Part shown: positions 940 through 58,115 of the stretch, in pieces
Numbering within the stretch: the stretch's first letter is position 1
Layout of the letters: each line of letters starts with the position of its first letter
Sequence record: NC_007023.1
Direction: 5' to 3' (one strand)
Source of the DNA: Escherichia phage RB43
Length of the DNA: 64,000 bases
The notes under the pieces: generated by a model
The model's database searches: none
What the model was told of the DNA's origin: nothing
Seen by the model: the letters and a program-made list of their open reading frames with translations, nothing else
Program-made: the position numbers and the translations under genes

Positions 940-3150
940 CGCTTTATCTTCCAGAATATACCGGATTTGATAGCCATCACTGTTTCTCAGGATTCGAGCA
1001 ATTAACGGATTGCGTTTAGCGAAAATCTCATATTGTTCGTCAACGCGTTCAATCATTGCATGTTCCATTTCTTCATGTCGGGCCTGTGCCACACGAATAG
1101 ACGGGTTCTTTGCTTCTGTCGTTTCACCGTCTTCTGTAGTCTGCATCAACACTTTACCATCAAGCGTGTTCAGAATATTGTATCGACGCGCATCATAACG
1201 GTTTTTAACCATGCGATCAAGGCTAATACCCAACTTTTCATATAGCTCTTTAACGGAATCACGGTACTTTTTCGAAACAAAAGCCGGATACCAGTTAGGT
1301 TTCATTTCTTTTGCAGTCTTGCAGAACAATTCAGCAAGGAACGTATCAAGACAAATCATGCTGCTGTCTGGGATCTTATTCCATAACGAATTACGGAGTG
1401 TATACACCACACGAACACCAGAGATTTCCATCACAGTAGCCAGGTTATTCATGATGTTTGACATCGAGAAGTTATTCGACTCACTCAACGAACTGTAATC
1501 ATCAACACCATACAGACGCAATGCGTATGCAGATTCGAGGTTGACAAACTCCGCTTTCGTGAGGAACAAATCTTCTTTGTTCAAATCGCCATTGATCCCG
1601 ACCGTGTAACGGTATGCTGTCGGCGTTTTCGGACGCGGTTCGGAATCTTTATCGATTGTTTCGCGTGTTGCTCTCCAGCGACGGCGATCCTCAGTATACA
1701 CTTCCAGTTCTTCCGTCATTTCACTGGTTTTCAGATAAACGATTTCAGATTCATCATAGTAACCGTTTTTGATGAAGTTCTGTAAATTATCCTGATTTCT
1801 GTTCGGATCGTATTCAATAAAGTTCATACGGTAAGTTTTGTGAAGCATACAGTACCCGATAGCATACGCACGTACAGACTTCGCGTTGTTATCGTTCTGT
1901 AACAGATACAGGTTTCTTTGCTTCCACGGGTGCAGCATACGCGTAATATCCTGGCGGCGCATGGTTTCAGATTTATACGCGTCGTAACGACGACCAGAAC
2001 CTGTGCGCTCAAAACTGCAATCTTTACCGTCATACACGTTCGCCCAGTATCCCCAGATCTGCATACTGGTGACCAGGTCTTTACTATTGAAGTGCATCAC
2101 CAGTTCAGCAAGGGTATTTTTCCCTACTTTAAACTGCTTATCACGGGTAACGAAAGTCTGCAACAGCGTTGGTAAATTTTGATACCAAATAACCTTTTCA
2201 CGCGTCGTTTTCAGTTTAGCAAATTCTGCTGATAGTTCTGAATAATACTGGTCGTTGATTGCTCCGAGTCGATCCATGATAACTTTCTTGGTGATCTTAT
2301 CAAGGCTTAACTCTTCGCGTGACGGCATGAAATCCAGAGAACCCAGCGGAAAATCCAAAATGTACGCATAGCTACTGTTCTGGTAGCAATAAAACAGGGA
2401 TTCTCTGAACATATCCAGGTCAATAGGATAGCAAATGTTACCCATACGCGCATACAAACCGGAATAATGCTTTGACTTATAACTGATGATCCCGCGATTA
2501 TTTGCTTCTGTCGGTTGCCAGTTGATATCCAGTTGAACACCAATAAAGCGAGGACGAATAGTTGTAAACGCTTCGTACACACGAGCGGCTTCACGTTCCC
2601 ATTCTGGGATATCTTCGACGTTAACCGGAACTGTTACCTGAACGCCGTTAGGTTCATCAGTTTCTACAGCATACAGAGGGTCAATGTACGGTTCGCCGTC
2701 TTCATTGAGGTAAGCAGTATAACCGCGCTTCATGCCGTCCTGAATTGATTCTACGGTGAATGTTGAGGTGTAGCAGAACGGTGATTTGCTACCCAGCCCC
2801 AACGCCCCGATCAGGTCGTCGGTGTCGGTTTTGGTTGATTCGAAATAAACGGTGAATACTTCGTTCACCATGTAATCACTCAGGCCAGTACCGTAATCAC
2901 GAACGATGAAACGAGGATCGAGAACAGTCGGTAACTGAACGTCAAAGCGATCCATGTTACCCGCTACGATATGACCATCAATCGCGTTACAAGAAATCTC
3001 ACGAATGATTGCGCGGATCTTGTATTTGTAGATTGTGGATGAAAGGATTTTGAACGCTTTCTTACCTGCTCTCATTCCAAAAGCTCTACGGCTTCCAGAC
3101 TCGATACCTACACGATGAACTGTGCTTGCTTGGCTTTCGCGTAACTTCAT
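940..3150 (-). CDS. rIIA: rIIA-like protein (about 737 codons, reads in frame into rIIB)
   Basis: ORF track 1..3150; N-terminal ATPase-like motifs (NAIDGH, DYGTGLS, GLGSKSPF) resembling T4 rIIA. Confidence 0.7.
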
Positions 3151-3160
3151 TGTTTATATC

Positions 3161-3394
3161 TCACTTGTTGAAAATAATGTTTTCGCATGAATACTTTGTC
3201 GGTTTCTTGTCGATACCGTATTCAAGCGGTGTACACATACGATCCATATAATCGTAAATTTCTTGTTTTCGTTTTTCTTCCTTTTTCATTTCAAGGATAC
3301 CAAAAACGATAGCAGTCACAAAACACATAGCGATAGTTGAAAGAATAACGATAGCTACATATTTTGATGTGTTTGGTGCGCTGTATGGTCTCAT
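3161..3394 (-). CDS. small membrane protein (hypothetical)
   Basis: 77-aa ORF with hydrophobic helix VAIVILSTIAMCFVTAIVFGIL; ATG overlaps upstream stop (ATGA). Confidence 0.4.
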   Translation of the reverse strand: MRPYSAPNTSKYVAIVILSTIAMCFVTAIVFGILEMKKEEKRKQEIYDYMDRMCTPLEYGIDKKPTKYSCENIIFNK

Positions 3395-3933
3395 TGTAAC
3401 ACCTTTGCAAATTCCTGTGAAGTCAGTTTACGGGCAACTAAACGCCCTTTTGTTGATGCTTTATGGCCTACCATATACATCGTTGAAATGTTGCGCTTTC
3501 CTGATTGAATCTCATTATACATCTTTTCAGGCATGGTTGATTGATAAACTTCACCGTTTGATGTTTTCAGGAACATCGCGTAAACATGGTCATCTTTCTT
3601 TTCGATGATTTCTTTTTCACGAACACGAACCTTAGATGATGTTGGTTTAGCACCCAATTCAATAGCCTTTCTTTGCCATGCAGGTCCGTGTCCAGCACCA
3701 TAACCAACAAGGGCATGTGCGATTTCGTGCATAAGAGTATCTAAAATGCACTCGTAGGTATCTTCTTCAACATGTTTCCGGCGTAACTGGATCTCTCTTT
3801 TGGAGTAACTGCAACAACCCAGAGTAGTTTTCAAACGTCCATTAATTTTGAATGACCAATCAGACAAACCATGTTTAGCCATGATGCTTTTGGCCCAAAG
3901 AATAATTTCCATGTCACTACGAGTTTTGAACAT
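3391..3933 (-). CDS. SprT-like zinc metalloprotease domain protein
   Basis: HExxH motif (MHEIAHAL) plus Cys cluster; start MFKTRSD with AGGAGGA 6 nt upstream. Confidence 0.6.
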   Translation of the reverse strand: MFKTRSDMEIILWAKSIMAKHGLSDWSFKINGRLKTTLGCCSYSKREIQLRRKHVEEDTYECILDTLMHEIAHALVGYGAGHGPAWQRKAIELGAKPTSSKVRVREKEIIEKKDDHVYAMFLKTSNGEVYQSTMPEKMYNEIQSGKRNISTMYMVGHKASTKGRLVARKLTSQEFAKVLQ

Positions 3934-4005
3934 TTTACATCCTCCTAATCGGTAGCGGGAGTAATATAACAAAAAAGCCCCTGCATCGCAAGGGCTTAAT
4001 GTAAA

Positions 4006-5296
4006 TTATTTCAATTTCTTCGAAAGTTCTTTCAAATCATTGAGATATTCAATTTTCGGGGTTGTCTCTTCCCAGTATTTCAGTTGCTTGCGCAATTCAT
4101 TTGCTTCATCTTCCAGCTTTTGACGTTCGTCAGTAGTTAGATGATAGGATGTTCATCGCAACCAGTATTTCGGCGTGGTTTTCGCAACCCTTCCATGTTG
4201 ATACGAATTGAACCGCTTCACTACGACTCAAGCCCTTCAACGAGTCAGGAGATTCAATCATCTGGTCGATAAATTCAACCTTAGCCAGCGCCCTTGCAAG
4301 TGCTTCCTTCGCTTCCTGTATGCGTTTTTCGATGCGCTGTTGATAAACCGTCATACGGATATCAACGAAATCTTTCAACAACGTTTCAGGACGTTCATAT
4401 GAATGCAACTTACCATTGAAGATAACGTTGATGTTCGGGTTTGAGTTCTCAATCAATCCAAAATCTTTCAGGATCTTTTCATGGGTAAGCCCGTTGGCAT
4501 ACTCACGTTTAAGGGTTATCTCATAGCGAAAATCTTCTTTCGATAGATCCTTATAGCTTACGATACACCCTTTCTCTTCCAGCTTATCCAGAATCGCAAT
4601 ATATTTCACGCGATCATACTTGACCGGAATCTCAGTGATCACCAGTTTAGTTTTACCCTGGAGTTCGTACTTACCGTACATTGTCCCGTCTACAATGTCA
4701 CCTTTAAATTGTGGATATTTCAGGTCAAGCGTGAAATCTTTCCCGTTCAGGTAACTAACACATCCATTCAGAACCGAAACCGGATCATGTGGTGGAATGT
4801 TTGTCGCGTATCCTTTCGCGATCCCTCTGAACCCGTTAACCAACACCATAGGAATGATTGGCAGATAATAGGCTGGCGGTAGGTGTTCAGGATCTTCATG
4901 CGGGATTGTTAAATCTTCGTCCATGTAGATAGCCTTGAACAGCGGAGACAGCTTACAGTAAATGTAACGAGGTGCGCCAGGCTTCTTAACCAGACGGGAA
5001 CCAAAGAACCCATCACGATCGAAAAGCGGGATATTATTGCACCAGTGCGCCGCCATGAGAGACAACGCTTCTTCAACGGATGTTTCCCCGTGGTGATACC
5101 CGTATATTGCAACACCGCCAGCAATAGATGCTACTTTCTGGAAGCCTGAACCTCCTTTCGCTGCTGAATGCACGAAGAAACGGTGAACGGGTTTGAACCC
5201 GTCTACCAGGTGCGGGATAGCACGAGAATAAATTGTGTAAAGGGCAAACGTAAGCCCTTCAACCTGTACAACGTCTTTAATACTTCTTTCCATCAT
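4006..5296 (-). CDS. 52: DNA topoisomerase II medium (GyrA-like) subunit gp52, reading frame broken near 4133-4152
   Basis: N-term AIPHLVDGFKPVHRF GyrA signature; 388-aa ORF 4130..5296 ends prematurely and a coding-like +1 frame (DERQKLEDEANELRKQ...KKLK) continues to TAA at 4008..4006. Confidence 0.7.
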
Positions 5297-7185
5297 TTCA
5301 CCGAAAATTTATGTTTTCCGTCAACCCAGTCTTTACGCGGATCGGACTCTTCACCGAAACACAGTTCCAGAACGTCTTTGTAATCGTCGCCCAGTACGAT
5401 TGTATCGTATTTTAACTGGTCGCCCAACACGCGATCGTAATCTGATTTACGCAAAGAACCCAGACCTTTGATGTATCGTACCTCTTTCGCTTTGTCGCGG
5501 AAAGGTACAAAATCGTCCATAGAGTAGAACCATTTTTCATCTTTTCCGATTTTAGCAATGATAATCGGTGTACGGATATACCGGATCTTTTTCTTCTCGA
5601 ACAACTCAGGCCAACGACTAAAGAACGCAATCAGTAGGGTGAGAATATCGCCCCCGTCAACGTCCGCATCCACCATGATCCCGATATTGTCGTATGCCAT
5701 TTCGGAAGAGTCGCCTGGATGGAGATTCAGGATCGCCATTAACTCGAATAACTCTTTGTTTTTGAGAATGTCGGTAAAGCTCATTCCCCAGGTGTTCAAC
5801 GGTTTGCCACGTAGCGGAAATGCGCCTTGTGTCTCTTCGTTTCTGCACTCGATAAACTGCCCTACAGCGGAATCACCTTCGGTCAGAAACAAAGTGGTTT
5901 CGACTCCATCGGTATCAATCCCTGATGCGGGAACATGTTTTGCAATCTTCGCCTTTTTCGCTTTCTTTTTCGCTTTCGTAATTGCTGCGGCTTCTGCTGC
6001 TTGCTTGCGAATAAGAGCGGATTCAATGATCGGAGTGATTATTTCAGAAGTATCCATAATCTGCTTCGCGATCTTTTTGTAATTCAATCCGGCGTGATTG
6101 TTGAACTCTCCAGCAGTATTGGTCAGTTTTTCTTTCGTCTGACTGTCAAAAGCTGGTGCATTGAAGTTATGCAAAAACACGACCAAAGTCAAGCATTCTT
6201 TTACACGGGCTTTCGGGATCTCGATAGCGTGTTTCTTCTTGATCATCGGTTCCAGTTCGGCATAGATACCATCAATCATACAATCGACGTGTACGCCACC
6301 GTTTTTTGTGTCCAGACCGTTGACGAATGATTTTTGTTTGAATCCGTCTTCTGTGCTCGCCAGGATGAAACTAATTTTGTTGTTTGTCTGCGTGATTGTG
6401 CTGTCGCCATACATCGCGCCATACATCGCAAACTTATTCGGTAATGTTTCACCGTTGTATGTGAATTTAACCGAAGGGAACGCCACTGCAAGCGCCATAA
6501 GGCGATCTTTGATGACTTCCTTTGTTTCTTCGTCGATGCCATCAACACCGAAGATTGAGAAATCAGGGGTAAACTTAACAGTGGTTCCCTGTTCTTTCGT
6601 CGGGCTTGTACGGTAATCCATGTTCTGTGCGCCGTCAGTACAGTTGATCGTGACTTTGCGCTTACCGTTGGATGTTTCACCGATAAAGATTGAACTGTAA
6701 CAGTTCGTCAGGAAAGAACCTACACCGTTCATCCCCATTGTTACGCGGTTTTCATCATCGAAGTTTGAACCAGATTTTGCCATAGTCCAGGCTGCAACAG
6801 GTTTAGGAACAATTTTCCCTTCTGGTGTTCTCACGTCATCTTGTGGAATACCGCGCCCGTTATCTGAGATTGTCACCAGATTATGATCAATCTTCACTTC
6901 GATTCTGTTCGCGAATTTAAAATCTGTACGGATCGCTTCGTCGATTGAGTTGTCGAGAATTTCATTGATGATTTTCACCAGACCTTCGACATATTCCACT
7001 TTGCGGAATTTACCCATGATGAAGCGTTCGTGTGCTTCGCGGTTCACTGAACCCACATACATGTTAGGACGTTTGCGAATGTGATCGCGGTCACTCAGGC
7101 AGAAAGATTCATCAACCTTTACGCCTTTTGGCGTTTCCGGTACTTTCTGCGGTTCGTCTTCGTCCATTAAGAAATCTAAACTCAT
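5293..7185 (-). CDS. 39: DNA topoisomerase II large (GyrB-like) subunit, gp39 and gp60 equivalents in one ORF
   Basis: GHKL ATPase motifs (ILDNSIDEA, ISDNGRGIP) and Toprim motif (TEGDSA) in one 630-aa protein; ATG at 7185 after AAAGAGGTG. Confidence 0.85.
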   Translation of the reverse strand: MSLDFLMDEDEPQKVPETPKGVKVDESFCLSDRDHIRKRPNMYVGSVNREAHERFIMGKFRKVEYVEGLVKIINEILDNSIDEAIRTDFKFANRIEVKIDHNLVTISDNGRGIPQDDVRTPEGKIVPKPVAAWTMAKSGSNFDDENRVTMGMNGVGSFLTNCYSSIFIGETSNGKRKVTINCTDGAQNMDYRTSPTKEQGTTVKFTPDFSIFGVDGIDEETKEVIKDRLMALAVAFPSVKFTYNGETLPNKFAMYGAMYGDSTITQTNNKISFILASTEDGFKQKSFVNGLDTKNGGVHVDCMIDGIYAELEPMIKKKHAIEIPKARVKECLTLVVFLHNFNAPAFDSQTKEKLTNTAGEFNNHAGLNYKKIAKQIMDTSEIITPIIESALIRKQAAEAAAITKAKKKAKKAKIAKHVPASGIDTDGVETTLFLTEGDSAVGQFIECRNEETQGAFPLRGKPLNTWGMSFTDILKNKELFELMAILNLHPGDSSEMAYDNIGIMVDADVDGGDILTLLIAFFSRWPELFEKKKIRYIRTPIIIAKIGKDEKWFYSMDDFVPFRDKAKEVRYIKGLGSLRKSDYDRVLGDQLKYDTIVLGDDYKDVLELCFGEESDPRKDWVDGKHKFSVK

Positions 7186-7230
7186 ATTCACCTCTTTATT
7201 AGTTCAGTCATTATATAGGGTTCTATGAAA

Positions 7231-7252
7231 AAGAAAACCCCTTTCGGGGTTT
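7231..7252 (-). terminator. rho-independent terminator hairpin
   Basis: Minus strand ACCCCGAAAGGGGT followed by T-run immediately after stop of 7251..7460 gene. Confidence 0.55.
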
Positions 7253-7460
7253 AAGCATCTTTGATTTTTTGAAGAATGGGTATCAGTTCTTCAACTTGCA
7301 TTCGTGTTAACGCGATCTCAAAACCATATTGATTAATTCGCGTGATTTGAGACACCGATTCTGAATCAAATTCAATAACCAGTCCATCACAATACTCTTG
7401 CGGTTGAAACCCATCGGCATATCCGTAATCATCGGGTATGGTTTCGGTTATTTTAGACAT
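7251..7460 (-). CDS. hypothetical protein (69 aa)
   Basis: ORF with ATG (MSKITETIP) 8 nt after AAAAGGTGG. Confidence 0.4.
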   Translation of the reverse strand: MSKITETIPDDYGYADGFQPQEYCDGLVIEFDSESVSQITRINQYGFEIALTRMQVEELIPILQKIKDA

Positions 7461-7614
7461 AGGGAAAACCACCTTTTACCATTTGGGGCTTGTCAACTGT
7501 TCGATGTGCTTCGCCTCCACATTCACAGTCTTTTGGTGCATCACGGGTCGCAATGCTGGACATTTTACTGAATTCTTTTTCGCACTTGGTGCATTTATAG
7601 GTATATGTTGGCAT
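7453..7614 (-). CDS. zinc-ribbon protein (FmdB-like CxxC...CxC)
   Basis: MPTYTYKCTKCEKEF...CECGG; start overlaps upstream stop (TAATG). Confidence 0.45.
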   Translation of the reverse strand: MPTYTYKCTKCEKEFSKMSSIATRDAPKDCECGGEAHRTVDKPQMVKGGFPYV

Positions 7615-8045
7615 TAATAAATCTCTGACAATGGAATAAAACGGATCGGGGTTGCGGCTTTGCTGAAAACACATTGAGTCTTTCCAGCAAACAGGAGATC
7701 AGTTTCATACACCATACAGATATATCCCTGATGCTCCAGAATTTCCCGCTCCCAGCTATCGAACCATTTAGACAACTTCTGCAATGAAGAGAAGCCGAAA
7801 AGATAGCTACGATAATTTTTACCATGTTTTGCAAGGTTACGCATTAAACGTTCGTCGTCATATGGTGGTATGTGGCGTTCATCGGAACAGCTAAAGTTCA
7901 AGCCAAATTCGATTCCATGCATATCAAGATATTCATGCAAATCATCATCGTCCGAAACATAACCGTTATACGGCCCTAACTGTTTGCACCAACCGTCATA
8001 TGACGAAAAGATAGACGCTTTCAATTCAACGCGATAAACCAACAT
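7614..8045 (-). CDS. hypothetical protein (143 aa)
   Basis: ORF with GAGGA 7 nt upstream of ATG. Confidence 0.5.
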   Translation of the reverse strand: MLVYRVELKASIFSSYDGWCKQLGPYNGYVSDDDDLHEYLDMHGIEFGLNFSCSDERHIPPYDDERLMRNLAKHGKNYRSYLFGFSSLQKLSKWFDSWEREILEHQGYICMVYETDLLFAGKTQCVFSKAATPIRFIPLSEIY

Positions 8046-8065
8046 GATTCGATCCTCGTAATTGA

Positions 8066-8734
8066 TTAACTACAAGTAGAGTACCACTTATCTAATTTCT
8101 TATCAAGCAGTTTATTGATCACTTGCGCAATTTCCGTTGTTCCGTGGGTTGTGTTCAGTTCCAGATAGATGACATCCAGAGCACACACGATCGCATCAAC
8201 ACTTTCTTCTACGATATTGCCCCCGCGTTGAGGCTGAACCAGGCATTCGGAAATTTCCCCGACTTCTGCCGATAGGTGATGAACAACATCACTCTTTGTG
8301 CGTTTCTTGACCTGATGTGCAACTTTAAAAAATTTGTCAAGCACAACAGAGGAATTTTCACGCGGGACGATCTCGCCTCCAGCATTTGATTCTACCATCG
8401 TTTTCTCGACAACATTTGATTCTTCCATCATTTTCTTGAATGCACTTGGAGTAATGATATCTTTATCTTCCGGCGCTTCGATTTCGTTCATGGAGACATA
8501 TACAGGATTAAACATTGAATCCATGATATCAACCGTAACCGGACAGGAGACACCCTCAAGATAAACTGAGTTCGGCATGACCATGCAGATTTTACGCGGT
8601 GCGTTGAAGTCCATCGGATTCTTTCGCAACTCTTCATAGACACGACGAACCGGGTCTGTCTGTTTAACCATCTGTACAACTGCGAGAAAAATCGATTTCG
8701 GGGCGTACATGTCGCCTACTTTATACTTGCTCAT
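8066..8734 (-). CDS. hypothetical protein (222 aa)
   Basis: ORF; internal ATG (MSKYKVGD) preceded by AAAGG. Confidence 0.5.
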   Translation of the reverse strand: MSKYKVGDMYAPKSIFLAVVQMVKQTDPVRRVYEELRKNPMDFNAPRKICMVMPNSVYLEGVSCPVTVDIMDSMFNPVYVSMNEIEAPEDKDIITPSAFKKMMEESNVVEKTMVESNAGGEIVPRENSSVVLDKFFKVAHQVKKRTKSDVVHHLSAEVGEISECLVQPQRGGNIVEESVDAIVCALDVIYLELNTTHGTTEIAQVINKLLDKKLDKWYSTCS

Positions 8735-9005
8735 TAACAATACCTTTATAGTAACCAAAAATAAAACAGTTCACGGTCGGACGTTCGCCAGGGAAGTGAA
8801 CACATTGCATGATGCGTTCTGCCATTAAAACATCGTCAAGATAAACACACGTTGTTTCTTCGTTATAATGACTGTCATATGATGTACGCTTAACCATACC
8901 AGGCAAACCAGCAATGTGCATGAATTTAGCGTTGCTGCACGGCTTTCCTGGTTTATCGTCGTAACATAAAACTACATTAGTTTTGCTGTTTTTTGGTCTG
9001 CTCAT
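8721..9005 (-). CDS. hypothetical protein (94 aa)
   Basis: ORF, ATGA overlap with upstream gene stop. Confidence 0.45.
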   Translation of the reverse strand: MSRPKNSKTNVVLCYDDKPGKPCSNAKFMHIAGLPGMVKRTSYDSHYNEETTCVYLDDVLMAERIMQCVHFPGERPTVNCFIFGYYKGIVNEQV

Positions 9006-9592
9006 TTGTTCACCACATCATTATATGTTGTTAAGTTCCATTCATGCACTTCCGGTACTTTGGAATAGTGATCCAGGAAGATTAGCTGTACTTGCATAAC
9101 ACTAGCACGATTCATATTGAACAGGAAGCGTTGAGGGGAAGAAATACACAGGTAATCTTCTGTTGTTCCTCTGCTCGCGGTAAATTCTTTTGTTTCGCCA
9201 CCATCAAATTTTGCATAAACGGTCGTGGAGAAGTACGGCGCATAAAGATTACGTTTTTCATCGTCAGTAATCGCGCTAAAACAGGCGCTGACGAGTTTTC
9301 CGCTACCTTCCCTTGTGATGGTGAAGGTCGTTCCCTTCGTGCGTCCTAAGACGTTCACAACGCGATCTGTGACATCACCGAAAGCATTCGTATAGTTCAC
9401 GGTTTCTACAAACCCATTATCGCGACGTTCCTGCAACATCTTTTCGTGTTGTTCAGCGGCGTCTTTCTCCGCTGCTTGTTCTGCTGCTTGATAAACCAGT
9501 TTATTCGGATCTCTTGATTGCCACGCAAAGAAAAACACTCCAGCGGCTATCAGTCCGAAAATTGTCCATCGTGCGGTTCCTGATAGTTTCAT
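9002..9592 (-). CDS. membrane-anchored hypothetical protein (196 aa)
   Basis: N-terminal TM helix WTIFGLIAAGVFFFAW; AGGAACAG before ATG. Confidence 0.5.
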   Translation of the reverse strand: MKLSGTARWTIFGLIAAGVFFFAWQSRDPNKLVYQAAEQAAEKDAAEQHEKMLQERRDNGFVETVNYTNAFGDVTDRVVNVLGRTKGTTFTITREGSGKLVSACFSAITDDEKRNLYAPYFSTTVYAKFDGGETKEFTASRGTTEDYLCISSPQRFLFNMNRASVMQVQLIFLDHYSKVPEVHEWNLTTYNDVVNK

Positions 9593-9628
9593 TTTCTGTT
9601 CCTGAAATGGGGCCGAAGCCCCCTTAGA

Positions 9629-9958
9629 TTAACGTAAGTATTTGACATACCCAGACGCATCGATGCTGTTTTCTGGGTTGTTGTAGATGTTACCACGAAT
9701 ACCCTTAGCAGGTGCTTTCCAGCCAGCGGCTTTGTAGATATTCCCGTCATTATCCAGGAATCCGGCAACTGAACGCTGGTTGAACATTTCACCAGTTTCT
9801 TTGTTGCGAGTATCCTGCACGATGCGGTGATACTTACGACCTTTCTCCAGAGTGAAAACAGTTTCAAACGGAGAATCCTGGAAACGTGCGTTACGAGCAA
9901 CGAACATCGCGTTCAGGTAAGGTGCTGCGGCGTTAGCGAGAGTTTCAAAAGTATTCAT
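9629..9958 (-). CDS. hypothetical protein (109 aa)
   Basis: ATG (MNTFETL) 7 nt after AAGGAGA; preceded by conserved promoter-leader cassette. Confidence 0.5.
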   Translation of the reverse strand: MNTFETLANAAAPYLNAMFVARNARFQDSPFETVFTLEKGRKYHRIVQDTRNKETGEMFNQRSVAGFLDNDGNIYKAAGWKAPAKGIRGNIYNNPENSIDASGYVKYLR

Positions 9959-9990
9959 GGTAAATCTCCTTAGTTCGTTTCGATGTGTGT

Positions 9991-10019
9991 ACTGTATCAA
10001 AGTCGGTATTTTAAAGCAA
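9991..10019 (-). promoter_or_regulatory. promoter (TTGCTT-N17-TACAGT; -35 region also matches MotA-box TGCTTTA) with conserved leader
   Basis: Read on minus strand; followed by leader GTACACACATCGAAACGAAC shared with three other genes. Confidence 0.45.
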
Positions 10020-10024
10020 GCGTT

Positions 10025-10237
10025 TTATTGATTTTCGAGCAAATAATTTAAATGGGCTTTCAGTGCCGGAAGTTCAGCAATATGATTCTGCTTAACTTTC
10101 TCATACTCTTTACGTTCCCACGGTTCCAGATCAGAAGCCAGTGCTTCATTGCAGTATGCGATCCCACGTTCCGCGTCTTGAACCATTTGGGTCCACTGTT
10201 TTACCGCTTGTTGGTGCATTGAACCGTTAACCATCAT
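10025..10237 (-). CDS. hypothetical protein (about 70 aa)
   Basis: ORF; ATG 8 nt after AGGGGAGGAA. Confidence 0.4.
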   Translation of the reverse strand: MMVNGSMHQQAVKQWTQMVQDAERGIAYCNEALASDLEPWERKEYEKVKQNHIAELPALKAHLNYLLENQ

Positions 10238-10461
10238 AATCATTTCCTCCCCTTGTTTTGATGGGATAACTATATCAAAGCTACCCCGCGAAGTCTTTAG
10301 CAAAAAGTGCTATGAATGCACCCAATTTCCGATCGCTACGATAAAGCAGGTAATGAAAGGTGCATTACAGAAAAAGTAGATCCCGTAATCAAATTCGGGA
10401 AGTTTAAAATTGTGGGCTGCGAGATAAACAAAGTTAGCAAACACCCACAAAGAAAAGACGA

Positions 10462-10686
10462 TCAAGAATTCGAACATAAATCAACCTGTTTTCCCTGATA
10501 CCATTTCGGGAATGTAACCTTTTCAATCAAGATCCGCGCCAGGTTGTAACTGTCACCGAAGAGAAGAACCCCGAACAATGGGTCTTTTTTAATATCACCC
10601 TTACCGACTGTTCTCATATGCCCTTGATGAATCACGGTGTCGCCCACCGTGATATCTTTGATACTGACTTTTGTTACATGATACAT
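10462..10686 (-). CDS. hypothetical protein (74 aa)
   Basis: ORF track only. Confidence 0.3.
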   Translation of the reverse strand: MYHVTKVSIKDITVGDTVIHQGHMRTVGKGDIKKDPLFGVLLFGDSYNLARILIEKVTFPKWYQGKQVDLCSNS

Positions 10687-10835
10687 ACGATAACCTCAGC
10701 GAGTTTAGCAGGTTTTGCTTCTGGTCTGATTTTCAGAGCATCATTTAAATTGTTTTCAACCATCGCTACTGCGTCTTTTTCGTTGAACCCGTTTTTAACC
10801 AGGGCTTTAACTACTTTGGCTTCTAAGTTTTTCAT
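10674..10835 (-). CDS. hypothetical small protein (53 aa)
   Basis: ATG (MKNLEAKVV) directly after conserved leader ...CGAAACGAAACAGACAAAGGAACGCATC. Confidence 0.4.
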   Translation of the reverse strand: MKNLEAKVVKALVKNGFNEKDAVAMVENNLNDALKIRPEAKPAKLAEVIVCIM

Positions 10836-10871
10836 GATGCGTTCCTTTGTCTGTTTCGTTTCGATGTGTGT

Positions 10872-10900
10872 AATATACTGCATATCGAAATTCGGGTCAA
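10872..10900 (-). promoter_or_regulatory. sigma70-like promoter (TTGACC-N17-TATATT) with conserved leader
   Basis: Read on minus strand; followed by TACACACATCGAAACGAAACAG leader. Confidence 0.5.
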
Positions 10901-10908
10901 TACCCAAA

Positions 10909-11394
10909 TCAAAGAAAATCGTATTTTTCTTTTAATTTTTCGTAATACGTACCCCATGCGGCTTCGTCGTTAATGATCTCAGTACCGAACCGATAAGCAC
11001 GTTTTCGCAGTTCGAAACGTTCACGGATACGCTCAACATTGATTTTCACTGATTCCGGCGTGGGTTTCCAGTCTGCACAAAGATGACGATGAAACAAGGA
11101 GTTTAACAACGGACTAAGATCGAAATCTTCATATGTTCCGTCCATGTATTCTTTACCATTACGTGCGAGGTATTCAGCACGTAATGCAGCATGACGATCG
11201 CGAAGGTATCCCAGCTTATTGTAAAAGAAGGTTACGTGTCCAGTTCCCAGCGTATACACAGCAGGTATTTTAGACAGGTTGATTTTTGCCTTACCGGATA
11301 AAACGGCATTGGGAATGCGCGGGAGTTCGCGGAGTTCTGCGATCAGGTGTTCGTTCAGCAGAAGAGAAGGATCGATTGTGTTAATACGTGTCAT
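10909..11394 (-). CDS. denV: pyrimidine dimer DNA glycosylase (endonuclease V)
   Basis: MTRIN... N-terminus and GHVTFFYNKL motif resemble T4 DenV; GGAGG SD. Confidence 0.8.
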   Translation of the reverse strand: MTRINTIDPSLLLNEHLIAELRELPRIPNAVLSGKAKINLSKIPAVYTLGTGHVTFFYNKLGYLRDRHAALRAEYLARNGKEYMDGTYEDFDLSPLLNSLFHRHLCADWKPTPESVKINVERIRERFELRKRAYRFGTEIINDEAAWGTYYEKLKEKYDFL

Positions 11395-11422
11395 AATTGC
11401 CTCCGTTTGTGTATGTGCGTAA

Positions 11423-11460
11423 TATACAAAAAAGCCCCCTGCATTGCAAGAGGCTTCTTT
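11423..11460 (-). terminator. terminator hairpin of the GCCC-TGCA/TGCA-GGGC family with embedded -35 and downstream TATATT
   Basis: Minus strand AAGCCTCTTGCAATGCAGGGGGCTTTTTTGTATATT. Confidence 0.5.
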
Positions 11461-11474
11461 AGCAAAAAGTGCTA

Positions 11475-11771
11475 TTATCTCAATAGTCGTTTACGAATAC
11501 CGCCATCACGGGTTTGGTCGTAAATCGCTTTTGCTTCTACTATTGTCTTTTTCAGTGTATGGCTTTCCCCGTGTCCGGTAAAATAGAACTCAACGAACCC
11601 TTCGTAAAGGTTTACATGGGTCGTCACACCTTCACCACGGAAGTGTTTCACAAACTGGCGCGTATTATACTTAAACCAATCATGGGCTTCCCCGTGTCTG
11701 TATAAGGAGTGGATCACAAATGCACCACCAACACTAATCAGAATAAGGCCAATTACTATAAGAGCGTTCAT
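11475..11771 (-). CDS. membrane protein (98 aa, hypothetical)
   Basis: N-terminal TM helix ALIVIGLILISVGGAFVI. Confidence 0.45.
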   Translation of the reverse strand: MNALIVIGLILISVGGAFVIHSLYRHGEAHDWFKYNTRQFVKHFRGEGVTTHVNLYEGFVEFYFTGHGESHTLKKTIVEAKAIYDQTRDGGIRKRLLR

Positions 11772-11977
11772 TATTTTCCCCTGTTCACAGACTGACGATG
11801 CAGCGCACGGTTGATGCGCGGTGCTTTATATGGTTTTACTTTGTATGGAGTCGGTTCTTCGTATGGAATTCGACTACACAAATCAACACAAGGTGTATTA
11901 ACCCAACGAATAGAATCAATCAGGCAACTTACCAGAGTGCGGCTAATCATAGTACCACCTAATACAGCTATACGCAT
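11771..11977 (-). CDS. hypothetical protein (about 68 aa)
   Basis: ORF 11771..12013 trimmed to ATG after GGGG; weak. Confidence 0.3.
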   Translation of the reverse strand: MRIAVLGGTMISRTLVSCLIDSIRWVNTPCVDLCSRIPYEEPTPYKVKPYKAPRINRALHRQSVNRGK

Positions 11978-11984
11978 AAAACCC

Positions 11985-12128
11985 CCTATCGTGCCGCCAG
12001 AAGACGAAGCCATTCACCCAACCAAACGATCGCCTCGTAAGACAACCATAATCCGATTGATACAATCGAAATCATACCAATAATTGCAAATGCGAATAGA
12101 ACCTTAAACCCTTCTTTCAAATCAAACA
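11985..12128 (-). CDS. small hydrophobic peptide (47 aa)
   Basis: Not in ORF track (<60 aa); AAGAGGA 6 nt before ATG; MFDLKEGFKVLFAFAIIGMISIVSIGLWL... Confidence 0.35.
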
Positions 12129-12167
12129 TAAATTGTCCTCTTTTGTCTCAGTCCCTATAAAATAACA

Positions 12168-12197
12168 AAGCCCCTGCACGAATGCAAGGGCTTTTTA
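12168..12197 (-). terminator. terminator hairpin (same family) with embedded -35 TTGCAT
   Basis: Minus strand AAAAAGCCCTTGCATTCGTGCAGGGGCTTTGTTATTTT after LysM gene stop. Confidence 0.55.
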
Positions 12198-12479
12198 TTA
12201 TAATTCTGTCATTTGGGGAAGTTTCAGAACCATACCAGGAAGAATATGACTGGCATTCTTAACTGTATCTCGATTCAGCTTTGCGATGGTGCGCCAGCGT
12301 TCACCGCATCCATACAGATTATACGCAATAGAATACATTGTATCGCCAGGCTGAACGATGTATTCACCATATTCAGTTGTAATTAAAGCAGGGTTCATTA
12401 CTCGATCGAACATCTGTACTTTTGCTTCATCCAATGTTTTAGCACGTACAGATATACCAGCAAATGTTAATTTGATCAT
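12198..12479 (-). CDS. LysM domain protein
   Basis: YIVQPGDTMYSIAYNLYG...ILPGMVLKLP LysM pattern; GAGGAA SD; ATGA overlap with dexA stop. Confidence 0.6.
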   Translation of the reverse strand: MIKLTFAGISVRAKTLDEAKVQMFDRVMNPALITTEYGEYIVQPGDTMYSIAYNLYGCGERWRTIAKLNRDTVKNASHILPGMVLKLPQMTEL

Positions 12480-13150
12480 CGTTTCCTCGGAAAACTAAGT
12501 TCGTCAGTTTCTTCTTCGGTCGGCGGTTCTTCCAACCCCATTGCATAACGCATAGCATAGATTAGCATCAACGCATCTTTTGCGCAATCGTGAATTGAGT
12601 TGTGCATCACAAAACCATTCAAAATACCTTTACGCAGAGGACAGGTAGAAGCCCCACGGGTTAACAGTCGGTTTTCAATGGCTGTACGCACATCACGGCT
12701 ATTCCAGAACACGGTCGGCATATCATCAAAGATATCAACCTTCCCTGTCATCTTGCGCACCACGTCAACCAGGATACCGCGATCGAACTCAGGGCCACGA
12801 ACATAATCGAGTGATTGCCAACGGCTTACACCATCTGCTTTCAAGTCCTCGAAAAACTGTTTATGCCCTTCGTACAGGTCTATATCATCAGGCGAAGGTT
12901 TCAGAATAACACGGGCTTCTTCGCTTTGCTGTTTCCACCAATCGGATCGTTGATTTGTCTGCAATGCGATCTGGTTGCTTACGCAAATCAAATTTATACT
13001 TTTTACCGGCGGTGACACCAGTTCTTCGAACGTTGGCGGGTTGTGCGGATCATCGATAAACGGAACGTAAGACAGTTCGACGATTTTACCGTTTGGTGAT
13101 GGTCCTACAGTTTCGTAGTCCCATACATAATCAACGTAAAGATGCGTCAT
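12476..13150 (-). CDS. dexA: exonuclease A (DnaQ-like DEDDh 3'-5' exonuclease)
   Basis: DxE motif (VWDYETVG) and H-x4-D (HDCAKD); sits next to dda as in T4. Confidence 0.7.
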   Translation of the reverse strand: MTHLYVDYVWDYETVGPSPNGKIVELSYVPFIDDPHNPPTFEELVSPPVKSINLICVSNQIALQTNQRSDWWKQQSEEARVILKPSPDDIDLYEGHKQFFEDLKADGVSRWQSLDYVRGPEFDRGILVDVVRKMTGKVDIFDDMPTVFWNSRDVRTAIENRLLTRGASTCPLRKGILNGFVMHNSIHDCAKDALMLIYAMRYAMGLEEPPTEEETDELSFPRKR

Positions 13151-19592: not shown

Positions 19593-19656
19593 GATGTCCT
19601 CCTTTTGTTTAATATAAGGTATCACTTTTCACATGTGATTGCAATACCTACAGATA

Positions 19657-19680
19657 CAAAAAAGCCCCGAAAGGGGCTTT
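19657..19680 (-). terminator. rho-independent terminator
   Basis: AAAGCCCCTTTCGGGGCTTTTTT on minus strand. Confidence 0.6.
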
Positions 19681-19684
19681 AATT

Positions 19685-26330: not shown

Positions 26331-26369
26331 CAATATAACAAAGCCCTTGCAGAAATGCAAGGGCTTTTT
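26331..26369 (-). terminator. terminator hairpin (same family) with embedded -35 TTGCAT and downstream TATATT
   Basis: Minus strand AAAAAGCCCTTGCATTTCTGCAAGGGCTTTGTTATATTG. Confidence 0.55.
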
Positions 26370-36880: not shown

Positions 36881-37065
36881 AACGTGAGTTCGATTTAAAG
36901 ACCTCTCCCGAAGTGGATAGGTATTATCTACACAACGAACTGTTGGAAGAAAAACACGTTGTTACTATGGAAGATGTCAAAGAAGCCTTTAAAGACAATC
37001 AGTTAGAGCTAACGCGAATACTGAATAACAAATCGTCTGTATGGTTTCTTGAAAAAATCTATTGA
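36874..37065 (+). CDS. hypothetical protein (63 aa)
   Basis: ORF track; overlaps gp46 end. Confidence 0.4.
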   Translation: MLEREFDLKTSPEVDRYYLHNELLEEKHVVTMEDVKEAFKDNQLELTRILNNKSSVWFLEKIY

Positions 37066-37091
37066 CACCTGAACATAAATACCTTAAAGTT

Positions 37092-37125
37092 GCCCGTGTA
37101 CTGAGTTGCACGGGCTTTTATTTTG
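37092..37125 (+). terminator. rho-independent terminator
   Basis: GCCCGTGTACTGAGTTGCACGGGC followed by TTTTATTTT. Confidence 0.55.
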
Positions 37126-37913: not shown

Positions 37914-38834
37914 ATGATGCGTAAAGGTGCGTATGTGTTTAGTGCGGTATACGACCCAGCGGTAAGTAAATTCCGTTCTGCTGCAAACCTTCGCGGTACT
38001 ATGTTTGAAGACGAAGACGGCGCATGTTTGGATATGATTATCGACACTTTCAAAGAAATGCAGAAAGCAAAACCGAACGTTAACGGTATTGTCGGTATCA
38101 TTGACAAGATGAACGCAGAATTCGCAGCGGGACACCGTTCAGCATCTTTCGTCAAACGTATGGCACAGCAAGCAGCAGCACCGAAGCCGGAAGAAAAGCC
38201 GAAACGCACTGTTAACCGTATCAGCAAAGATGATTATTTCAACGCATTGAAACAAGCGGGTGCAACATTCCGTAGCAACTACGGTGAGTTTGATAACGGC
38301 GCTGGATTGACTTTCCACTTCAAACGCGAGATCAGCAACCGTAAAGGCTTCTGGAGTTTCAGCAGTTTTAATTTCATGCACTCTGGTCAACGTCATGTTG
38401 AATGGTTGAAAGATATCGACATTGACGAAGACAGCAAAGGTGCAAGTATCGGTCTGATGGTTGATACTCTGAAACAGTTGCGTGGTGTTGCTGATTGGTA
38501 TACTGCAAGAAAGATCCTGGAAGCGATGCGCGACAACTTCAAAGCTGGTAAGTTCTCCGCACCACACGTTAAGAAAGAAGCCGAACAGAAACGCACTGAG
38601 GCGCAAGCTAAGGACGAGTTAGGCGCACAGCCTACCAAACCCCAGGAAGCAAAGAAAGAAGCCCCAGCAGTTGATAAGGCTCATGAGGCGCAAATGGCTA
38701 AAGAGAAAGCACAGATGAATGCAACCATTCGTTCTATGCTCTCCGCTCTGGTTAAAGCTGGACGCAAAGACACGCCGGAAGAAATTAAAAAAGCAGTTGA
38801 TGAAGCAATCGCTCTCTGGCGCTTGAAACACTAA
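37914..38834 (+). CDS. hypothetical Lys/Ala/Glu-rich protein (306 aa)
   Basis: ORF track; same frame as J-domain gene, separated by single TAA and 63 open nt; no clear SD. Confidence 0.45.
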   Translation: MMRKGAYVFSAVYDPAVSKFRSAANLRGTMFEDEDGACLDMIIDTFKEMQKAKPNVNGIVGIIDKMNAEFAAGHRSASFVKRMAQQAAAPKPEEKPKRTVNRISKDDYFNALKQAGATFRSNYGEFDNGAGLTFHFKREISNRKGFWSFSSFNFMHSGQRHVEWLKDIDIDEDSKGASIGLMVDTLKQLRGVADWYTARKILEAMRDNFKAGKFSAPHVKKEAEQKRTEAQAKDELGAQPTKPQEAKKEAPAVDKAHEAQMAKEKAQMNATIRSMLSALVKAGRKDTPEEIKKAVDEAIALWRLKH

Positions 38835-38850
38835 CTGATTGTGTTATACT

Positions 38851-38880
38851 GGGAACTGTTGAAAAGCAGTTCCCTTTTTT
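38851..38880 (+). terminator. rho-independent terminator
   Basis: GGGAACTGTTGAAAAGCAGTTCCC followed by TTTTTT. Confidence 0.6.
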
Positions 38881-38894
38881 ATGAGGAAAATACT

Positions 38895-50171: not shown

Positions 50172-50248
50172 GGCCCTTTAGCTCAATTGGTAGAGCGAAC
50201 CCCTCATAAGGGTGTGGTTTCCGGTTCGAGTCACGGAAGGGGCCACCA
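50172..50248 (+). tRNA. tRNA with CAU anticodon (Met, or Ile2 if lysidine-modified)
   Basis: Cloverleaf by hand: acceptor GGCCCTT/AGGGGCC, D-arm GCTC-AATTGGTA-GAGC, anticodon loop CTCATAA, T-loop TTCGAGT, 3' ACCA; T-stem carries one extra base. Confidence 0.6.
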
Positions 50249-50407
50249 AATTAGGGTGCTGGCGCAATGCCGTTAAATGGTTCCGAATATGCAACCGTAT
50301 CTTATGGGATCGGCTCTGTTGGTATCGGGTAATAGGTTCCCTGGAATGCAGGGTGAAGTAAAGAAACTCCCAGCCCACAAATTAAATTAAACTTAAAGAG
50401 AAATGAA

Positions 50408-57682: not shown

Positions 57683-57700
57683 ATAGCACTTTTTGTTAAA

Positions 57701-57737
57701 GAAGCCCCTTGCGTAAGTGAGGGGCTTTTGTTATTGT
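57701..57737 (+). terminator. terminator hairpin (GCCCCTTGCG...GGGGC) with embedded -35 TTGCGT and -10 TATTGT 17 bp later
   Basis: GAAGCCCCTTGCGTAAGTGAGGGGCTTTTGTTATTGT. Confidence 0.55.
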
Positions 57738-57774
57738 ACACACATCGAAACGAAACAGACAAAAGGAACATCCC

Positions 57775-58044: not shown

Positions 58045-58057
58045 TTAATTAAACCAC

Positions 58058-58086
58058 TTGCACATCGCGAGGGGTTTTGATACATT
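58058..58086 (+). promoter_or_regulatory. sigma70-like promoter (TTGCAC-N17-TACATT) with conserved leader
   Basis: Followed by CCATATCGAAACGAAAGGAG leader and ATG 58116. Confidence 0.5.
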
Positions 58087-58115
58087 ACCCATATCGAAAC
58101 GAAAGGAGAAACATC

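Follow-up and report, generated by a model that had tools for sequence, protein, structure and literature searches.

The five sites and their setting

Escherichia phage RB43 is a Pseudotevenvirus, and the first 64 kb of its genome (NC_007023.1; 64,000 nt, hereafter the window) carry five short intergenic hairpins that have the form of intrinsic transcription terminators and, in the same base pairs, the form of sigma-70-type early promoters. Window coordinates are the RB43 coordinates of the published lists considered here (Nolan 2006, PMC1524935), and the names of genes and open reading frames (ORFs) were taken from the RB16 annotation; genes are encoded by the minus strand as far as ~32.5 kb and by the plus strand beyond. 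Over window positions 3000-13000, a stretch with 100% identity to the RB43 entry in the database, Citrobacter phages CfP1, Miller and IME-CF2 are 98-99% identical to RB43, Escherichia phages Lw1 and RB16 ~91% and Citrobacter phage Margaery 84%, and more than 100 phages of Klebsiella, Enterobacter and Cronobacter fall between 60 and 90%. CfP1 was dropped as a comparison genome, being 99% identical to RB43 and hence uninformative; its ~2 kb of apparent extra sequence correspond to two adjacent annotated rIIA coding sequences. The features of the five sites are as follows.

Site 1, 3975-3997, minus strand: putative terminator hairpin AAGCCCTTGC-GAT-GCAGGGGCTT, -15.8 kcal/mol, after gene 52 (topoisomerase II medium subunit)
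Site 1, 3969-3974, minus strand: U-tract
Site 1, 3963-3991, minus strand: putative promoter, -35 TTGCGA (3991-3986), 17-bp spacer ending TGT, -10 TATATT (3968-3963)
Site 2, 11429-11459, minus strand: putative terminator hairpin GAAGCCTCTTGC-AAT-GCAGGGGGCTTTT, -18.5 kcal/mol, between ORF017c and denV
Site 2, 11421-11449, minus strand: putative promoter, -35 TTGCAA, N17, -10 TATATT
Site 3, 12167-12194, minus strand: putative terminator hairpin AAAGCCCTTGCA-TTCG-TGCAGGGGCTTT, -19.3 kcal/mol, between ORF020c and ORF019c
Site 3, 12159-12187, minus strand: putative promoter, -35 TTGCAT, N17 ending TGT, -10 TATTTT
Site 4, 26340-26367, minus strand: putative terminator hairpin AAAGCCCTTGCA-TTTC-TGCAAGGGCTTT, -19.8 kcal/mol, directly 3' of regA and ahead of ORF039c and gene 43
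Site 4, 26332-26360, minus strand: putative promoter, -35 TTGCAT, N17 ending TGT, -10 TATATT
Site 5, 57700-57729, plus strand: putative terminator hairpin AGAAGCCCCTTGC-GTAA-GTGAGGGGCTTTT, -21.1 kcal/mol, after gene 30 (DNA ligase)
Site 5, 57709-57737, plus strand: putative promoter, -35 TTGCGT, N17 ending TGT, -10 TATTGT

On the coding strand, the sites read TTAAGCCCTTGCGATGCAGGGGCTTTTTTGTTATATT (site 1), AAGAAGCCTCTTGCAATGCAGGGGGCTTTTTTGTATATT (site 2), AAAAAGCCCTTGCATTCGTGCAGGGGCTTTGTTATTTT (site 3), AAAAAGCCCTTGCATTTCTGCAAGGGCTTTGTTATATT (site 4) and AAGAAGCCCCTTGCGTAAGTGAGGGGCTTTTGTTATTGT (site 5). A sequence-only reading of this DNA had claimed five such hairpins behind stop codons, each with TTGC(A/G)(T/A) placed 17 bp upstream of TAT(A/T)(T/G)T; all five are there, in the positions and orientations claimed, and the paired hexamers are present in every one. 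The 3' arm that it took to be shared, TGCA-GGGGC, holds for sites 1 to 4 and fails at site 5, which reads GTGAGGGGC.

The gaps between stop and start codons measure 72, 80, 68, 69 and 92 nt at sites 1 to 5, and the strand of each module is that of the flanking genes. A Shine-Dalgarno sequence of the GGAG type (weak at site 5) and an ATG close every gap; the ATG of ORF003c, downstream of site 1, lies at ~3933, and the other genes downstream of modules are denV, ORF019c, ORF039c and small ORFs after gene 30. The hairpin always begins within ~25 nt of the stop codon: directly after it at sites 3 and 4, 8 nt beyond it at site 1 and ~15-17 nt beyond it at sites 2 and 5. Stems comprise 10-14 pairs, six of them G-C, and enclose loops of 3-4 nt; on its 5' side the GC stem directly adjoins an A-tract (AAA to AAAAA, or AAGAA) located around -40 to -45, and 3-6 U come right after the stem. 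The -35 hexamer sits in the 5' arm and loop of the hairpin, and an extended -10 (TGn before TAT...) is found at sites 1, 3, 4 and 5, site 2 being without it (TTG abuts TATATT).

In the whole window, TTGC[AG][AT]-N17-TAT[AT][TG]T has five matches, all of them at the five sites, as against 0.31 +/- 0.51 in dinucleotide-preserving shuffles, none of which (0/100) reached five; the pattern was defined after the sites had been seen, so that this count overstates the significance. The folding energies of the five hairpins as sense-strand RNA range from -15.8 to -21.1 kcal/mol, and their z scores relative to shuffles from -4.2 to -6.1. A scan of the window against Rfam at the gathering threshold gave no family at the five sites and a tRNA as its sole match.

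Conservation and spacing of the putative promoters

A census of the whole RB43-GVA record for TTGnnn-N16-18-TAnnnT, restricted to matches whose -35 falls within a stable hairpin, returned 14 clear members. They occupy early-gene regions (3.6-100.5 kb and 156.9-178 kb) and are absent from the late structural block. Of the 14, 11 have a spacer of 17 bp and 3 one of 18 bp, and the extended -10 recurs in 11. The spacing of exactly 17 bp that had been given for the five sites is thus right for them, and as a rule for the family it has to be relaxed to a strong mode. An alignment of the copies had also been proposed; in an ungapped version with 11 of them, CTTGC, three T of the U-tract, T-12, A-11 and T-7 are invariant, and loops and flanks are variable. 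In sigma-70 promoters, the bases that matter most are the -35 TTG together with A-11 and T-7 in the -10.

The spacing is kept in a particular way. Among the 14 RB43-GVA copies, a loop and 3' arm that take up 9-10 nt of the spacer are followed by 6 T, and those that take up 11-12 nt by 3-5 T; the distance between the boxes is held at 17 bp (18 in 3 of 14) because U-tract length offsets hairpin length. Moreover, the U-tract is always interrupted by a G at one point because this G is the -14 of the extended -10, with a T at -15. A wider test in IMG/VR used the pattern GCCCTTGC-N7-11-GGGCTTT-N0-7-TATATT, which leaves the distance between the boxes free over 12-23 bp: of the 75 unique contexts returned, 60 had a spacing of 17 bp, 11 of 18, 1 of 16 and 3 of 19, and the two gaps were anticorrelated, as (7,5), (8,4), (9,3) and (10,2). 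Because 37 of the 75 contexts come from one AT-rich contig family, which bears only a distant similarity to Flavobacterium phages and has several copies on each contig, the counts are not independent, which weighs against the dual reading, and this result is supportive of the 17-bp mode rather than decisive.

Orthologous copies point the same way. The RB16 copy of site 3 has exchanged G-C for A-T on both sides of the stem base with the 17 bp kept, and the orthologues of site 4 in Lw1, RB16, a KP15-like genome and two uncultivated genomes all retain the hairpin, TTGCA and TATATT, the changes being an inverted loop (TTTC to GAAA) and one A-U pair turned into G.U. The site 4 loci were fetched from IMG/VR with RegA as the anchor, which yielded only six close relatives. 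Covariation was judged by folding each sequence separately and comparing the copies directly; an RNAalifold run on 11 hairpins aligned with MAFFT, which gave only four pairs and no covariation, was set aside, since differences in loop length misregister the 3' arms.

Three further observations concern the site 4 position. In Lw1 and two other fetched loci (~1570-1610 of the locus), the loop and inner stem are inverted, TTGCATTTCTGCAA vs TTGCAGAAATGCAA in RB43, and the inversion looks like a palindrome "flip" that preserves the hairpin, the -35 TTGCA and the spacing. In two KP15-like loci, the hairpin sequence of the site 4 orthologue is that of RB43 site 3. Marine T4-like contigs were unusable as orthologues, their arrangement after regA being different; four of them carry TTGACA-N17-(TG)TTATATA ~20-100 nt after regA and then a hairpin downstream of the -10, which is a PeSL-like arrangement (promoter-early stem-loop; see below) of other geometry at the genomic position of site 4.

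Independent predictions exist for the promoters. The 43 predicted RB43 early promoters of Nolan 2006 (PMC1524935, Additional file 3) include Pe:4005 (score 17.6), Pe:11463, Pe:12201 (24.7), Pe:26374 (25.4), Pe:57694 (23.7) and Pe:58043 (25.1), and the module promoters take the four highest scores of the window. Early promoters without a hairpin also occur in this genome, examples from the window being:

10872-10900, minus strand: putative promoter TTGACC-N17-TATATT, leader CACATCGAAACGAA at 10855-10868
9983-10033, minus strand: putative promoter TTGCTT-N17-TACAGT, same leader type; Pe:10033 (20.1) in the list of Nolan 2006

The second of these carries TTGCTT and shows TTGC to be the local form of the -35 even without a hairpin.

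These data bear on the possibility that the sites are terminators only, the TTGC and TAnnnT boxes being incidental to a shared palindrome and AT-rich sequence and their resemblance a product of duplication. The hairpin with its U-tract is indeed the strongest and least ambiguous signal at the sites, the match of the -35 to TTGACA is poor, related copies could inherit the boxes, and other terminators of the window have no promoter in register, such as that at 19661-19680, which is followed by TATCTG. However, TTG, T-12, A-11 and T-7 are invariant next to variable positions, the U-tract shifts in length to keep 17-18 bp, and the hairpin-less promoter at 9983-10033 shares the TTGC -35, the -10 and the leader; downstream genes would, moreover, be left without a promoter behind a strong terminator, and an independent hidden Markov model (HMM) search placed the sites among the best RB43 early promoters of the list cited above (Nolan 2006, PMC1524935). 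A role in termination alone is decidedly unlikely.

The modules were also compared with MotA-dependent middle promoters, for which the criterion was a motA gene in the genome and a box (a/t)(a/t)(a/t)TGCTTtA that has its centre at -30 and is followed 11-13 bp later by TAnnnT. This candidate was rejected: the modules have TTGC(A/G)n rather than TGCTT, the only GCTTT is the end of the stem, 2-5 bp from the -10, and there is no motA. Nolan 2006 (PMC1524935) reports for RB43 neither a motA orthologue nor a middle-promoter consensus.

Strand bias and the terminator hairpin

A GC stem of at least five pairs, a short loop, a U-rich tract, a position after a stop codon and the transcribed strand, all expected of an intrinsic terminator, are found together at each of the five sites. 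In 13 of the 14 hairpins, the sense RNA is 1.4-10 kcal/mol more stable than the antisense RNA because G.U pairs are used. The 3' arm reads only GCAGG, GCAAG, GTGAG or GCGAG, all of which pair with the 5' arm CTTGC, itself fixed by its role as -35, and this strand bias argues for selection on a transcribed terminator hairpin rather than on a DNA operator. TransTerm terminators with confidence 100 are listed at 3977-3995, 11434-11454, 12170-12191 and 26343-26364, which correspond to sites 1-4 (Nolan 2006, PMC1524935, Additional file 6); the rows considered covered these sites, and at least four are thus listed as terminators. Similarly, the RefSeq records of CfP1 and Margaery have terminators annotated at orthologous places.

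Early transcription of the T4 type is marked by extensive read-through, and the hairpins could accordingly be imagined as protectors of RNA 3' ends, ribonuclease (RNase) processing sites or attenuators beside genuine promoters rather than as efficient terminators. The U-tracts of only 3-4 U at sites 3-5, interrupted by G, lend this some colour, as does the term "terminator/attenuator" used for related elements by Arbiol 2010 (PMC2839356). On the other hand, stems of 10-14 pairs at -16 to -21 kcal/mol with at least three U directly after them are typical of intrinsic terminators, TransTerm assigns its confidence of 100 at no fewer than four sites, and a PeSL stem-loop of phage phi1 reduces lacZ expression as much as rrnB T1. 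Hairpins that are not efficient terminators are thus highly unlikely as an account of the family, with somewhat more room for an attenuator or RNA-stability role at the copies with only 3-4 U. Finally, a palindrome TTGCA...TGCAA acting as DNA operator for a dimeric phage or host regulator, as cruciform or as recombination site is disfavoured as extremely improbable: site 4 is a near-perfect DNA palindrome (sense -19.8 vs antisense -20.2 kcal/mol), the inverted loop of the Lw1-type orthologues hints at events within one strand or at a cruciform, and indel junctions coincide with modules, but 13 of 14 copies rely on G.U pairs available to the sense RNA alone, 3' arms of GTGAG or GCGAG facing CTTGC break the dyad, loops vary in length and sequence, and the stem base covaries from G-C to A-T in a way that keeps pairing and not a half-site.

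Gene-content junctions

When the window was compared with RB16 by blastn, insertion-deletion (indel) borders were found at two of the five sites, with sites 1, 4 and 5 lying inside colinear blocks. RB43 10878-11412, which holds denV (endonuclease V), is absent from RB16; its right junction, 11413, is the 3' edge of the site 2 promoter, and its left junction lies inside the hairpin-less promoter at 10872-10900. The pair of promoter repeats on either side of denV in RB43 is represented in RB16 by one hybrid module, the upstream half of which is that of site 2 (ATAGCACTTTTTGCTAAAGAAGCC plus hairpin) and the downstream half the leader of 10872-10900 (TATATTACACACATCGAAACGAAACAGACAAA...). Such a hybrid is what recombination between the two promoter repeats would be expected to leave behind. 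Likewise, RB43 12202-12470 (ORF020c) is absent from RB16, with its junction, 12201, at the 5' edge of the site 3 hairpin. Other ends of RB43/RB16 blocks adjoin further hairpins or promoters (34964, 38886, 43405 and 51122), and blocks of similarity to Margaery end at 7253 and 11455. To judge from these alignments, the association of junctions with modules is consistent with module-mediated shuffling of genes.

Relationship to promoter-early stem-loops and other systems

Promoter-early stem-loops (PeSLs) were defined in phages RB49 and phi1 as repeated intergenic elements with a sigma-70-like early promoter, an AT-rich upstream region and a stem-loop, and were divided into five sub-classes by stem-loop position, one of which overlaps the -35 (Arbiol 2010, PMC2839356). 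The same study demonstrated promoter and terminator activity by lacZ fusions in phi1/RB49, with a phi1 stem-loop that cut lacZ expression as much as rrnB T1 and cloned promoters so strong that clones gained mutations in the -35 or -10; it also tied PeSLs to indels, reported the formation of mini-circles and mentioned PeSL-like sequences near RB43 gene 43, the location of site 4. The class was later extended to PST/T4 and nt-1/KVP40, where the consensus is TTGYVH-N17-TAWWAT with stems of the form A3-4G3-loop-C3T3-4 (Comeau 2014, PMC4122927).

The RB43 modules resemble PeSLs in combining an N17 early promoter with a stable stem-loop, in filling the gap from the stop codon to the Shine-Dalgarno sequence and ATG, and in their many copies in early or hyperplastic regions, beside small ORFs and, at sites 2 and 3, at indel borders. 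Their form is close to the consensus and stems of nt-1/KVP40. The PeSLs of RB49 and phi1 differ, with near-perfect TTGACA/TATAAT boxes and polyG-loop-polyC stems placed mostly between -35 and -10 or over the -10, whereas the RB43 family has CCC(C)-TTGC...GGGG stems, a TTGCnn -35 inside the 5' arm and usually the TG of an extended -10. At the level of sequence, the following properties of a PeSL are found: a promoter with ~17 bp spacing, a stem-loop over the -35, gap filling, an A-tract, multiple copies and, at sites 2 and 3, indel borders. The five hairpins are therefore very probably PeSL-type cassettes of the sub-class in which the stem-loop overlaps the -35, with terminator and early promoter contained in ~45 bp. 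The sequence-only reading had proposed coupled terminator-promoter modules rather than chance, and in this it is borne out by conservation, spacing, strand, orthologues, earlier predictions and the existence of a known class.

Several points weigh against this interpretation. The -35 matches TTGACA at just 3-4 of six positions and -10 variants such as TATTGT and TATTTT are sub-optimal. The copies are paralogous, and part of the conservation and of the IMG/VR spacing is shared descent. For a terminator to be efficient, tracts of 3-4 U with an intervening G are short. Intergenic gaps are where indel junctions lie in any case, and a match at two of five sites is no proof of module-mediated recombination. 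A literature search on RB43 and any Pseudotevenvirus found no mapped transcript 5' or 3' ends, only in-silico predictions; it likewise found no catalogue of RB43 PeSLs, no reporter assay on them and no test for mini-circles.

Both the class of element and the predictions at the individual sites have been published before, and the finding is thus correct and not new. The promoter and terminator lists of Nolan 2006 (PMC1524935) were made separately, and no comment on their overlap in a fixed register was found in the portions of that paper considered here. What is added by the present analysis is a description of the RB43 family, the mapping of two functions onto one sequence, the compensation of spacing, the denV and ORF020c junctions, a sixth copy in the window, the count of 14 copies in the genome and the 18-bp variant.

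Comparisons with other systems are also informative. Like extended -10 sigma-70 promoters, and like the GT-rich region upstream of -12 in T4 early promoters, the modules have T-15 and G-14 (in 4/5 sites and 11/14 copies), and the TG fits promoters that tolerate a weak -35; unlike extended -10 promoters, the RB43 TG also ends the terminator U-tract, and a conserved TTG is retained in the -35. Like lambdoid morons, the denV cassette, seen against RB16, is a small gene that came or went together with its own transcription signals, as one unit; unlike in morons, where promoter and terminator are separate and flanking, the terminator of one RB43 unit is the promoter DNA of the next. The novel ORFs of T4-like phages have been argued not to be moron-like in GC content (Nolan 2006, PMC1524935).

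A proposed mechanism

From what was observed here of the anatomy, number and conservation of the copies, of the stability of their RNA and of the indel junctions, we infer how termination, initiation and recombination would proceed in RB43. A polymerase arriving from the upstream gene would transcribe the palindrome and U-tract and end its transcript there, as suggested by the anatomy and the phi1 experiment; in RNA, A(3-5)-(G/A)CCC(C)TTGC-loop-G(C/T)(A/G)(A/G)GGG(C/T)-U(3-6) would fold as an intrinsic terminator. As duplex DNA, the same sequence would be read by the host sigma-70 polymerase, with the A-tract at the UP-element position, TTGCnn of the 5' arm and loop as -35, the 3' arm and T-tract as 17-bp spacer, TG as extended -10 and TAtatT as -10. 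Initiation ~7 nt downstream would yield a leader of 20-30 nt with the Shine-Dalgarno sequence of the next early gene, a proposal based on conservation, spacing compensation and HMM predictions. The three parts of the terminator (A-tract, GC stem and U-tract) would in this manner coincide with the UP position, the -35 plus spacer and the extended -10. The cassette would insulate neighbouring early genes and re-set transcription within a gap of 70-90 nt, and, judging by the RB16 junctions, the 14 similar copies may act as short homologies for the gain, loss or swapping of gene cassettes between related phages.

It is conceivable that the modules go further and serve as a hand-off device. A polymerase can, after termination, re-initiate nearby, and one releasing its RNA at the U-tract could be re-captured by sigma-70 and re-initiate in place on the same template. 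If so, a limited supply of host polymerase would express the early genes as a series of short transcripts in equal dose. In a weaker variant, the extended -10 could resist an AsiA-type block of -35 recognition, and the modules could double as "middle" promoters in a phage that lacks MotA. Both ideas are drawn from geometry and general knowledge, and they are decidedly unlikely.

Further family members and shared flanking motifs

A census of the intergenic gaps in the window found a sixth, weaker member:

58051-58086, plus strand: sixth member, with putative hairpin AACCACTTGC-ACATC-GCGAGGGGTT at 58051-58077 (one mismatch, -10.8 kcal/mol)
58058-58086, plus strand: its putative promoter, -35 TTGCAC (58058-63), N17 ending TGA, -10 TACATT (58081-86), leader CATATCGAAACGAA

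Two sequence motifs accompany the promoters. The leader CACATCGAAACGAA recurs downstream of the site 5 promoter (57741-57754, plus strand), and in the more general form CA(C/T)ATCGAAACGAA the motif lies just 3' of the -10 at 9974-9987 (minus), 10855-10868 (minus), 57741-57754 (plus) and 58090-58103 (plus). These four matches in the window compare with 0.24 expected, and at least 10 promoter-following copies are present genome-wide. The motif would make up the first ~20 nt of the transcripts, and its candidate roles include that of an initial transcribed sequence, of a signal for translation or RNase and of a part of the recombining repeat. Upstream of the modules, a 17-nt motif, GCACTTTTTG(C/T)TAAAGA, directly precedes site 2 (11456-11472, minus; GCACTTTTTGCTAAAGA) and site 5 (57686-57702, plus; GCACTTTTTGTTAAAGA), and it is also found at 10294-10310 (minus), before a decayed, hairpin-poor copy at ~10250-10310. 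It has three matches in the window against 0.00 expected and a fourth copy elsewhere in the genome, and the repeat is thereby ~90 bp long in this sub-family.

Cassettes of the same geometry occur in IMG/VR on seven AT-rich environmental phage contigs that are only distantly similar to Flavobacterium phages. They carry 2-4 copies each, of the form aaataaacNttaaagaGCCCTTGC-loop-(A/G)GGGCTTTTTTnnTATATT and then ...TTATAAC...ATG, where a Shine-Dalgarno sequence is lacking, and the hairpin, TTGC and TATATT are arranged as in RB43 in what is apparently an unrelated phage group.

Other promoter-hairpin arrangements in the window

Hairpins and promoters are also combined in other ways in the window. 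The rki promoter (ORF057w, a J-domain protein) at 37062-37115 (plus) consists of TTGACA-N17-TAAAGT, immediately followed by the strong hairpin GCCCGTGTAC...GCACGGGC and a T-run between the -10 and the Shine-Dalgarno sequence; this is a PeSL of another sub-class, one that has its stem-loop downstream of the -10. That rki is transcribed early has been shown by northern blot (PMC3486835). At 38823-38882 (plus), TTGAAA-N16-TATACT is directly followed by the hairpin GGGAACTGTT-GAAA-AGCAGTTCCC and TTTTTT, and the RB43/RB16 block end at 38886 comes right after. At 7186-7250 (minus), the hairpin AAACCCCGAAAGGGGTTT precedes GTTTTC-N17-TATAAT, in which GTTTTC, similar to the T4-type -35 GTTTAC, is supplied by the terminator U-tract; similarity to Margaery breaks at 7253. 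Finally, within 19593-19684 (minus), the terminator hairpin AAAGCCCCTTTCGGGGCTTTTTT is without an in-register promoter, and ~40 nt downstream of it an inverted repeat, ATCACATGTGAAAAGTGAT, covers the -35 and spacer of a promoter-like site with TATATT and could be an operator.

Elsewhere in the window, a single tRNA gene, tRNA-Met (CAT), lies at 50172-50248 (plus; Rfam match at 50172-50244). RB16 has tRNA-Met and tRNA-Gly annotated at the matching place; RB43 is without the second tRNA and has ~160 nt of non-coding DNA there (50249-50407).

Biological significance

Because the element class and the site predictions had already been published, no new question is opened by these modules. They do extend the support for the PeSL model, as published, to another branch of T4-like phages, namely the Pseudotevenvirus group of RB43, RB16, Lw1 and their Citrobacter and Klebsiella relatives. 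For the biology of these viruses, the modules would mean that a large lytic phage packs the stop signal of one gene and the start signal of the next into ~45 bp, and that copies of this repeated cassette mark the spots at which related phages have gained or lost genes, denV among them. Potential uses include better annotation of early transcription units and compact insulator-promoter parts for phage engineering.

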